A program made the translations under genes and the position numbers. DNA of 592 nucleotides. It comes from Escherichia coli. GTDB taxonomy: Bacteria > Pseudomonadota > Gammaproteobacteria > Enterobacterales > Enterobacteriaceae. The stretch lies in NCBI RefSeq assembly GCF_003334815.1, contig NZ_QOWO01000126.1. The stretch is one strand, 5' to 3'. Shown here one piece after another: positions 1-592 of the stretch (positions are counted from its first letter, which is position 1; every line of letters begins with the position of its first letter). The notes beneath the pieces are model-generated. The model saw only the letters and a list, made by a program, of their open reading frames with translations, ran no database searches and had not been told where the DNA came from.

Positions 1-215
1 TTGCAGAATTAAGCCGCCGTTTCAGCTGCACGCTGGAGCACTGGTATGCCGAACAGGGCTGTGATTTCTGTGGCTGGCAGTTGTATGAGCGCGGAGAGCT
101 TGTTGATGTGCTGTGGGGGGAGCTGGAATGGTCTTCCCCGACAGATGATGATGAGCTGCCGGAAGTCACCGGACCTGCGTGGATAGTCGACAAGGTGGCG
201 CATTACGGTGGATGA
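1..215 (+). CDS. 3' end of a protein-coding gene, 5'-truncated by the window edge; hypothetical protein, last 70 codons plus TGA stop
   Basis: Only long open frame on + in this region (codons at 3,6,9...; stop TGA 213-215). Translation: AELSRRFSCTLEHWYAEQGCDFCGWQLYERGELVDVLWGELEWSSPTDDDELPEVTGPAWIVDKVAHYGG*. About 44% of codons start with G; codons are mostly enterobacterial-preferred (CTG, CCG, GCG, GAA). Six Trp, a Cys cluster (C-x10-C-x2-C) and an acidic DDDE tail. No in-window start, so not in the supplied ORF track. Followed 11 nt later by an intrinsic terminator. Product family not recognised. Confidence 0.7.
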   Translation, partial: AELSRRFSCTLEHWYAEQGCDFCGWQLYERGELVDVLWGELEWSSPTDDDELPEVTGPAWIVDKVAHYGG

Positions 216-225
216 AGTATGACGG

Positions 226-256
226 AGACGGGCGGGCAACCGCCCGTTTCTTTTCC
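226..256 (+). terminator. Rho-independent terminator of the upstream gene
   Basis: Perfect 7-bp GC stem 229-235 (CGGGCGG) with 240-246 (CCGCCCG) around a GCAA tetraloop (236-239), extendable by A228:T247, then T-rich tract TTTCTTTTCC (247-256). The reverse strand has no T-run after the hairpin, so it is unidirectional for +. Sits 11 nt after the TGA stop. Confidence 0.7.
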
Positions 257-316
257 GGTAAAGGATGTCGCCATGCTCCTCTTTTTACTGCGCCGGCTGA
301 CGCGGCGCGGCATAAA

Positions 317-328
317 CGCTGCCTGTGG
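317..328. repeat. Left arm of perfect 12-bp long-range inverted repeat (CGCTGCCTGTGG)
   Basis: 317-328 CGCTGCCTGTGG is the exact reverse complement of 529-540 CCACAGGCAGCG. Flanking bases on both sides do not pair (A316/G541, T329/C528), so the repeat is exactly 12 bp. Confidence 0.85.
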
Positions 329-358
329 TCAGTGTCCCGCGTCCGGCGGGCACGGGAC

Positions 359-420
359 GGGCGCTTTTACCGCTCCCGGCTGGCGTCGGTGACAGTGTAC
401 GCCAGCCCGTCGCCCTTTTC
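359..420 (+). terminator. Internal terminator-like or attenuator-like nested hairpin followed by a T-tract
   Basis: Perfect 9-bp stem 378-386 (GGCTGGCGT) with 399-407 (ACGCCAGCC), 12-nt loop; outer 5-bp helix 359-363 (GGGCG) with 411-415 (CGCCC); immediately followed by TTTTCT (416-421). The T-tract is short (4 T), so termination efficiency is uncertain. Confidence 0.35.
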
Positions 421-528
421 TGATGAACGCCCTTCAAGCCGCTTTCGCGGCATAGCCTTGCCGTCAAAAAGACGACGGCTGCGGTATTCCACGGTCGGCC
501 TGACCCGTTACCGGACGCGGTGAACAGC

Positions 529-540
529 CCACAGGCAGCG
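529..540. repeat. Right arm of perfect 12-bp long-range inverted repeat (CCACAGGCAGCG)
   Basis: Exact reverse complement of 317-328; the arms are separated by 200 nt. Its first 7 nt (CCACAGG) recur at 552-558. Confidence 0.85.
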
Positions 541-546
541 GGGAAC

Positions 547-578
547 GGGCACCACAGGGGTGCCCTCCCGGTGCCCTC
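547..578 (+). repeat. Hairpin (GGGCACC/GGTGCCC) plus tandem direct repeat GGTGCCCTC x2, just upstream of the RBS
   Basis: 547-553 GGGCACC pairs with 559-565 GGTGCCC (7 bp, 5-nt loop ACAGG). GGTGCCCTC occurs at 559-567 and again at 570-578, separated by CC (period 11), so 547-553 can pair with either copy. Confidence 0.7.
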
Positions 579-585
579 TGTAAGA

Positions 586-592
586 GAAGGAG
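586..592 (+). promoter_or_regulatory. Shine-Dalgarno sequence (GAAGGAG) for a downstream gene whose start codon lies beyond the window
   Basis: AAGGAG at 587-592 matches the core SD consensus and sits at the 3' edge; a start codon would be expected about 5-9 nt downstream, outside the window, so it cannot be confirmed. Confidence 0.45.

Follow-up and report, generated by a model that had tools for sequence, protein, structure and literature searches.

A class 3 single-stranded DNA promoter and a structured mRNA leader are the probable content of a sequence upstream of a plasmid methylase gene

Results

The stretch of DNA analyzed here (592 nt, the window) very probably carries, at 317-540, the class 3 single-stranded DNA (ssDNA) promoter ssp3 of IncI1/IncF leading regions, which drives an M.EcoGIX-type methylase gene, with 529-592 predicted to hold the transcription start and the 5' untranslated region (UTR). 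The class 3 promoter at this locus is already known (Wen et al. 2025), and the value of the present analysis is mainly corrective, in that an apparent RNA switch corresponds to a published promoter at the DNA level. The box assignment, the start near 533, the covariation and the UTR hairpin are added here; we did not find them described in those parts of the published text that were available. Within this added detail, the covariation of the base helix, the invariant and mismatched A(-11) and T(-7), and the leader hairpin give concrete positions, which will matter only if they are confirmed experimentally.

In the mechanism considered here, the incoming transferred (minus) strand, alone in the recipient, would fold into a 224-nt hairpin, which the host RNA polymerase would take as a promoter, and complementary-strand synthesis would then remove the hairpin and turn the promoter off. 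A hairpin that serves as a promoter in this way, on in ssDNA and off after conversion, has been shown for pESBL (Wen et al., PMC12672017). By means of ssDNA promoters, anti-restriction, anti-SOS and methylase genes are switched on within minutes of plasmid entry, before the DNA is duplex, and these promoters are part of the passage of resistance plasmids through host defences.

Genomic context

In the annotation of an IncI1 plasmid, the window is flanked by a DUF1281 gene and a DNA methylase gene. The plus strand after the window carries an array of genes, namely the methylase, DUF1380, a klcA/ardB-type anti-restriction gene, ssb, a parB-like gene, psiB, psiA and ardA, and in pESBL-EA11 this order (umuDC ... 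methylase ... ardB/klcA ... ssb ... psiB/psiA ... ardA) is oriented to nikA/oriT. Since the array points toward nikA/oriT, the window belongs to the leading region; since the genes from the methylase to ardA all lie on the plus strand, toward oriT, the transferred strand (T-strand) is the minus strand of the window and serves as their template. The window thus has the position of an ssp3, in the leading region and upstream of a T-strand-templated gene.

The window is 97-98% identical to the corresponding sequence of pESBL(-EA11), with few substitutions over the 592 nt. In that plasmid the sequence lies directly upstream of the sole leading-region methylase gene, whose ATG stands 7 nt past the window end, and it is therefore homologous to the M.EcoGIX upstream sequence, the locus by which class 3 is defined. 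The copy in the F plasmid is 96% identical and is likewise located 5' of the methylase gene. At least 5000 conjugative plasmids of Enterobacteriaceae matched the window at 95-99% identity in a search of a plasmid collection; DNA and methylase-protein searches of this collection gave at least 5000 records, among which the relatives listed were at least 90% identical and offered no diversity. Within its own plasmid, the window has no paralogues detectable by blastn. Two features precede the promoter.

1-215, plus strand: 3' end of the upstream DUF1281-family leading-region gene, with the stop TGA at 213-215 (annotation of NZ_CP124477 and pESBL; open reading frame (ORF) 81-215)
225-250, plus strand: terminator-like hairpin rich in GC, GAGACGGGCGG / CCGCCCGTTTC, with a T-rich run after it (inverted repeat, read by eye)

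The hairpin at 225-250 comes directly after the DUF1281 stop. It has the appearance of an intrinsic terminator, which in the duplex form would shield the promoter hairpin from read-through; a simple scan for terminators gave no call there. RefSeq places a "hypothetical protein" ORF, at times named "arginase", across the promoter hairpin (window 212-523, which is 12212-12523 of L001, the sequence of the window's plasmid, and 54394-54705 of pESBL). In this region the homologues carry indels of 1 and 2 nt relative to one another, and the annotation of one copy marks a frameshift. The ORF is probably not a gene, in which case annotation pipelines place a spurious reading frame over the promoter.

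The large hairpin and the strand on which it folds

A sequence-only reading of the window had drawn attention to repeats next to the ribosome-binding site (RBS), and a check of the sequence found every motif in its place: CCACAGG at 529 and 552, its complement CCTGTGG at 322, GGGCACC at 547, and GGTGCCCTC, that is GGTGCCC(TC), at 559 and 570. The perfect 12-nt inverted repeat 317-328/529-540 extends to 30-nt arms (317-346/511-540) with 83% complementarity. The chance level of these repeats was estimated by shuffling the window 2000 times with its dinucleotides preserved. A perfect inverted repeat of at least 12 nt to the upstream sequence arose in 0.05% of the shuffles, a direct repeat of at least 9 nt within 30 nt inside 529-592 in 0.35%, a 7-mer whose complement occurs twice in 529-592 in 0.8%, and a 7-mer occurring twice in 529-592 with its complement upstream in 0.95%. 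The repeats are real and non-random in the window sequence. The long inverted repeat forms the base of the following structure.

317-540, minus strand: class 3 ssDNA promoter (ssp3), large hairpin of 224 nt (identity with pESBL, DNA fold, mismatch pattern)
317-328, minus strand: base helix, non-template arm, pairing with 529-540 (compensatory changes at 7 of 12 pairs)
529-540, minus strand: base helix, template arm, with the predicted start near 533 inside it (arm from covariation; position of the start by inference)
337-346, minus strand: helix 2, arm pairing with 511-520 (90% paired; 4 of 10 pairs with double-sided changes)
511-520, minus strand: helix 2, arm pairing with 337-346 (same covariation count)

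Folded as DNA, the minus strand from 310 to 547 reached -71.9 kcal/mol (z = -5.7, within a range of -5.4 to -5.7 for the minus-strand folds), and 0 of 200 shuffles folded as well; the T-strand is thus predicted to form the large, stable stem-loop that characterizes ssp3. For diverged relatives, a pattern for the conserved apical motif was scanned against one genome per species. About two thirds of the 72 matches were chance hits in GC-rich genomes, and about 25 true homologues were recovered, at 72-99% identity, from Citrobacter, Raoultella, Klebsiella, Enterobacter, Erwinia, Hafnia, Edwardsiella, Cedecea, Buttiauxella and Entomohabitans. The block 430-451 is invariant among them by construction, since the search pattern required it.

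In the resulting alignment of 28 sequences, the base helix, helix 2 and the local hairpin 547-553/559-565 had 91.2% of their cells paired and double-sided changes in 15 of 29 pairs, counts that include changes inherited from a few lineages. None of 500 shuffles reached the observed values for these three helices, and shifted controls gave 36-50%. The base helix occurs in at least four complementary versions, whose 5' arms read CGCTGCCTGTGG, TGCCGCCCGCTGC, CTGCCCGGAGC and CTGCACGGTGC.

The non-Watson-Crick cells carry information on the strand. In the large hairpin (base helix, helix 2, 352-356/504-508 and 378-386/399-407), the 28 sequences contained 57 A.C cells on the plus strand, equivalent to G.T on the T-strand, against 4 G.U cells, whereas the local hairpin 547-553/559-565 showed the reverse, with 20 G.U and 0 A.C on the plus strand; many of these cells are inherited from few events, and the counts are supporting evidence, not proof. 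This pattern suggests that the large hairpin folds as DNA on the transferred (minus) strand and that the local hairpin folds as RNA in the transcript. The long-range helix 317-328/529-540 most likely acts in DNA.

Two further blocks, 351-363 (CACGGGACGGGCG) and 485-508 (TATTCCACGGTCGGCCTGACCCGT), are near-invariant in all homologues and were not required by the search pattern. They lie partly opposite each other around the -35-like hexamer described below, and may be contact sites of RNA polymerase or SSB.

Promoter elements and the start site

Because the mRNA is complementary to the T-strand and runs toward the gene, the gene-proximal arm of the hairpin (430-540) would be the template and the other arm the non-template strand. 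On these two arms, three elements can be assigned.

329-336, minus strand: internal loop of 8 x 8 nt, non-template side, GACACTGA on the minus strand (conserved loop; the -10 function is a candidate one)
521-528, minus strand: internal loop, template side, TGAACAGC in the plus sense (alignment)
500-505, plus strand: -35-like CTGACC in the plus sense, TTGACC in many homologues (within the invariant block 485-508; putative role)

The non-template arm would thus provide a -10-like [G/C]ACACT (336->331) that lies in a pre-melted mismatch bubble, the template arm would bear the complement of the -35-like (C/T)TGACC, and transcription would begin near 533, inside the 12-bp base helix. The candidate -10 of the window, GACACT on the minus strand (336->331), matches TATAAT at three of six positions and reads [G/C]A[C/G]NCT across the 28 sequences. 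Its A(-11), at 335, and T(-7), at 331, do not change in any of the 28 sequences and form mismatches with the facing arm, while positions 3 and 4 vary. In the duplex, the non-template strand at the -10 would read TGAACA or CGTACA and would not have T(-7), and a simple promoter scan of the window found no linear sigma-70 promoter; these two properties would explain activity in the single strand only.

The -35-like hexamer is present only as its complement on the template arm, where it faces CCGTCC with two mismatches. Judged from the sequence, the -35 is only half reconstituted and has no clean duplex. The -35 and the -10 are separated by 15 nt along the template arm and by 18 nt along the other. 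The predicted start, 7 nt on from T(-7), falls opposite 533 (range 531-535), and 533 is a purine in all lineages.

Other assignments were tried and rejected. On the non-template arm, the -10 candidates TAAAAG (369->364) and TACACT, in the loop of the sub-hairpin 378-407, are not conserved. With the opposite arm as the template, there were no plausible boxes, and the -35 would land in the unpaired flanks.

Comparison with published ssDNA promoters

Six operons of pESBL are strongly induced in fresh transconjugants, each after a hairpin-forming intergenic segment, and three classes have been distinguished: class 1 is ssi1-3/Frpo, class 2 is located 5' of klcA and ardA, and class 3 is located 5' of M.EcoGIX (Wen et al., PMC12672017). 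According to the same report, the class 3 hairpin is unlike the other hairpins, shows strong early induction in transconjugants and has a start determined by 5' RACE (PMC12672017); F is stated to conserve classes 2 and 3 (Wen et al., Nucleic Acids Res 2025, PMC12672017). The elements have been named ssp1-3, and ssp3 has been used as a functional promoter replacement (Fraikin et al., bioRxiv 10.64898/2026.01.09.698686). The window occupies the same locus as ssp3 of pESBL and F, has the same flanking genes and the same orientation (toward oriT), and likewise has a large hairpin on the T-strand; it differs from them in nothing essential, being the copy of another plasmid.

The class 1 elements (F Frpo1/2 and ColIb-P9 ssi1-3; Masai and Arai 1997; Bates et al. 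1999; Couturier et al. 2023) resemble the window in that a T-strand hairpin of ~300 nt precedes leading-region genes and is active only as ssDNA. However, the window has neither sequence similarity to them nor their A/T-rich apical UP-like element, and its candidate boxes are much farther from the consensus. By blastn, the window showed no similarity to F Frpo or ColIb-P9 ssi1-3, and its matches to the five known and eleven candidate Frpo/ssi sequences of Samuel et al. were at chance level only; the sequences of Samuel et al. do find their own copies elsewhere in L001. The window's plasmid contains class 1 copies at 16640-16970 and 23004-23329 of L001 and class 2 copies at 14823-15156 and 21790-22132.

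Class 2, which precedes klcA/ardB and ardA, is the same element as ssp2, as Frpo' 4 of Samuel et al. 2024 and as "Frpo3" of bioRxiv 10.1101/2025.04.03.647016. It resembles the window in its arrangement: the 3' arm holds a -10-like element that lies partly within an internal loop, and next comes a base helix (12-15 bp) beside the gene; in the window's plasmid, class 2 reads TTGCAT ... TAAGAT on the 3' arm, and then comes a base helix of 15 bp. The two differ in that their sequences are unrelated and that class 2 has the clearer -35 and -10 (TTGCAT / TAAGAT). Furthermore, class 2 is a replication roadblock, whereas ssp3 is reported to have no such activity (bioRxiv 10.64898/2026.01.09.698686).

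This last difference bears on an explanation that we consider improbable, in which the hairpin mainly primes complementary-strand synthesis or blocks replication instead of being an mRNA promoter, the structures of the leader being incidental. There are precedents in the related classes, since the transcripts of Frpo (class 1) act as primers of DNA synthesis in vitro, and probably also in vivo (Masai and Arai 1997, as reported in citing papers), and conversion stalls at class 2 (ssp2) (Fraikin et al., bioRxiv 10.64898/2026.01.09.698686). The preprint that describes this stalling, however, finds ssp3 to be a promoter of equivalent strength without the roadblock, and the M.EcoGIX operon is induced from a mapped start site (Wen et al., PMC12672017). 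In addition, the G.U wobbles of the UTR hairpin are specific to the plus strand, which points to selection on the RNA. Priming could still be a second role of the promoter hairpin.

The leader of the methylase mRNA

With a start near 533, the transcript would begin with the following leader.

533-592, plus strand: predicted 5' UTR of the methylase mRNA, continuing to the ATG 7 nt beyond the window (from the putative start)
534-575, plus strand: extended 5'-terminal RNA hairpin, 534-537/572-575, 539-543/566-570 and 547-553/559-565 (minimum free energy (MFE) structure)
547-565, plus strand: local hairpin GGGCACC-ACAGG-GGTGCCC, the inner part of the UTR hairpin (covariation)
570-578, plus strand: second copy of GGTGCCCTC, whose TGCC core pairs with GGCA at 534-537; not a conserved repeat (alignment, folds)
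587-592, plus strand: Shine-Dalgarno (SD) sequence of the M.EcoGIX-type methylase gene, AAGGAG (predicted to be unpaired in the leader)

The full extent of the predicted 5' UTR is 533-599, as pESBL and L001 both continue GGAG-CGTTGTT-ATG. The UTR hairpin at 534-575 is the MFE structure, with pair probabilities of 0.84-1.0, and is predicted in nearly all lineages. In the RNAalifold consensus of the leader, both the inner and the outer helices contain compensatory pairs, and in 17 of 18 sequences the plus strand of the leader gives a better fold than the complement does. The local hairpin is 99.5% paired among the 28 sequences, with double-sided changes in four of seven pairs and about six versions of the stem. 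The SD sequence is unpaired in the MFE structure of the window's lineage and of most other lineages.

The second repeat copy keeps only its TGCC(C) core because this core pairs with GGCA/GGGCA at the mRNA 5' end. In Hafnia, GGGCAG in the 3' arm of the base helix is changed to GTGCAG; its DNA partner is changed from CTGCCC to CTGCAC, and its RNA partner from UGCCC to GCAC. This three-way covariation of 533-540, 317-324 and 566-575 in Hafnia rests on a single event.

A tentative proposal, which we regard as rather doubtful, is that the segment ~533-540 is dually constrained, in ssDNA as part of the base helix with 317-324 and in RNA as part of the mRNA 5' hairpin with 566-575, and that this might aid transcript release. 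If it were true, the UTR hairpin might peel the nascent RNA away from a template on which no complementary strand is present to displace the transcript, and the released transcript would be a translatable mRNA and not a persistent RNA-DNA hybrid or primer. 5'-Terminal stem-loops, such as that of the ompA leader, stabilize E. coli mRNAs. The predicted UTR hairpin resembles them in lying 0-1 nt from the predicted 5' end and in leaving the RBS free; the 5' end of the window's leader is itself a predicted one. As a speculation, the UTR hairpin would shield the mRNA 5' end from 5'-end-dependent decay.

Alternative pairings of the repeats

The repeats had been read as competing helices of a riboswitch or attenuator, in which the leader RNA toggles between two exclusive folds beside the RBS and so controls the downstream gene. 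We give this explanation very little probability. Its starting point is sound, in that the repeats and complementarities are real and rare by chance, and 300-592 folds well as RNA (z = -4.2). Like riboswitch and attenuator platforms, the window also has a structured region directly before the RBS and sequences with several pairing options. What the window does not have is a conserved alternative fold, a match to an aptamer family, a terminator or a sequestered SD sequence.

Of the four helices that had been proposed, 317-328/529-540 and 547-553/559-565 are conserved, whereas 322-328/552-558 and 547-553/570-576 lack support. The first of the unsupported helices is paired in 64% of cells, compared with 55-61% in shifted controls. 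The second is compatible with pairing in most sequences that have letters there, and where no deletion has occurred, 547-553 still has a possible partner in the downstream TGCC motif, with most of the pairs being G.U; however, it shows no double-sided change, and the deletion shortens the pairing in 12 of 28 sequences. In Hafnia, moreover, the downstream motif shifts so as to keep its pairing with the mRNA 5' end and not with 547-553. Covariation across the homologues thus upheld the base helix and the local hairpin and neither alternative, and in the 28 homologues the proposed exclusive helices are not both conserved.

Constrained folding of 300-592, which had been suggested as a check, divided the helices in the same manner. 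The base helix and the local hairpin have a probability of ~1 in the RNA ensemble, and both alternatives have a probability of ~0, with forcing costs of +21.2 kcal/mol for 322-328/552-558 and +8.8 kcal/mol for 547-553/570-576. The second fold cannot exist as it had been described: its two helices share 552-553 and therefore cannot both form fully, and forcing them jointly was infeasible.

The SD sequence is free in the predicted leader folds, and a terminator scan found no terminator after it, so that no fold hiding the SD sequence or forming a terminator was identified. If transcription starts near 533, the 5' partner 317-328 would not be transcribed. At the gathering score, the window matches no riboswitch, leader or other curated cis-regulatory RNA family in Rfam, and all matches are below the threshold. 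The best of these is the "Erse" small RNA (RF02757), on the minus strand at 363-558, with 19.3 bits against a gathering score of 138 (E = 0.0025). The RF02757 match covers the apical half of the hairpin on the T-strand, and 0 of 7 related loci reach the threshold. The locus is very probably not a riboswitch or an attenuator but the published DNA-level promoter followed by its leader.

Least credible is the suggestion that the tandem copies of GGTGCCCTC, spaced by 11 bp, form an operator that binds a repressor on one face of the duplex DNA. A perfect 9-mer repeated one helical turn apart is unusual (the 0.35% of shuffles given above), but the repeat does not persist. The second copy is already mutated in pESBL, where it reads GGTGTCCTC, and close relatives other than pESBL have GGTGCTC; in the pKpQIL-type lineage 5 nt are deleted and there is no repeat; and further lineages have GACGTCCTC or GGCTCCCTC as the first unit and keep TGCCCCC as the second. 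The homologues therefore do not conserve both units in sequence and spacing. The second 9-mer is not kept as a repeat, in contrast to the local stem 547-553/559-565, and each copy is accounted for by its pairing, the first by covariation with 547-553 as a stem and the second by pairing to 534-537.

A retron msr/msd, as suggested by the long-range inverted repeats before the SD sequence, is ruled out, as the downstream gene encodes a methylase and not a reverse transcriptase.

Additional copies and neighbouring elements

Upstream of the DUF1281 gene, L001 11097-11217 resembles in part the "Frpo* 1" candidate of Samuel et al., and the DUF1281 gene may, from this resemblance, have an ssDNA promoter of its own.

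Several contigs with homologues of the window contain a second, more diverged class 3 copy (L070 3074-3394, L006 2812-3132, L056 587-907, L041 3263-3583, L061 13540-13860 and L036 6379-6699). These second copies precede leading-region genes other than the methylase, and class 3 is therefore not tied to the methylase. One of the genes encodes a DUF1281-like protein (MPNWC...) that shares a C-terminal motif with the window's upstream gene, and another encodes a small protein ending in ...DANDGFNWSHLQ..EVKRV. On the contig of Candidatus Erwinia dacicola that has two class 3 copies, a single CRISPR-DR4 repeat match lies above the gathering score (L061 3992-4019).
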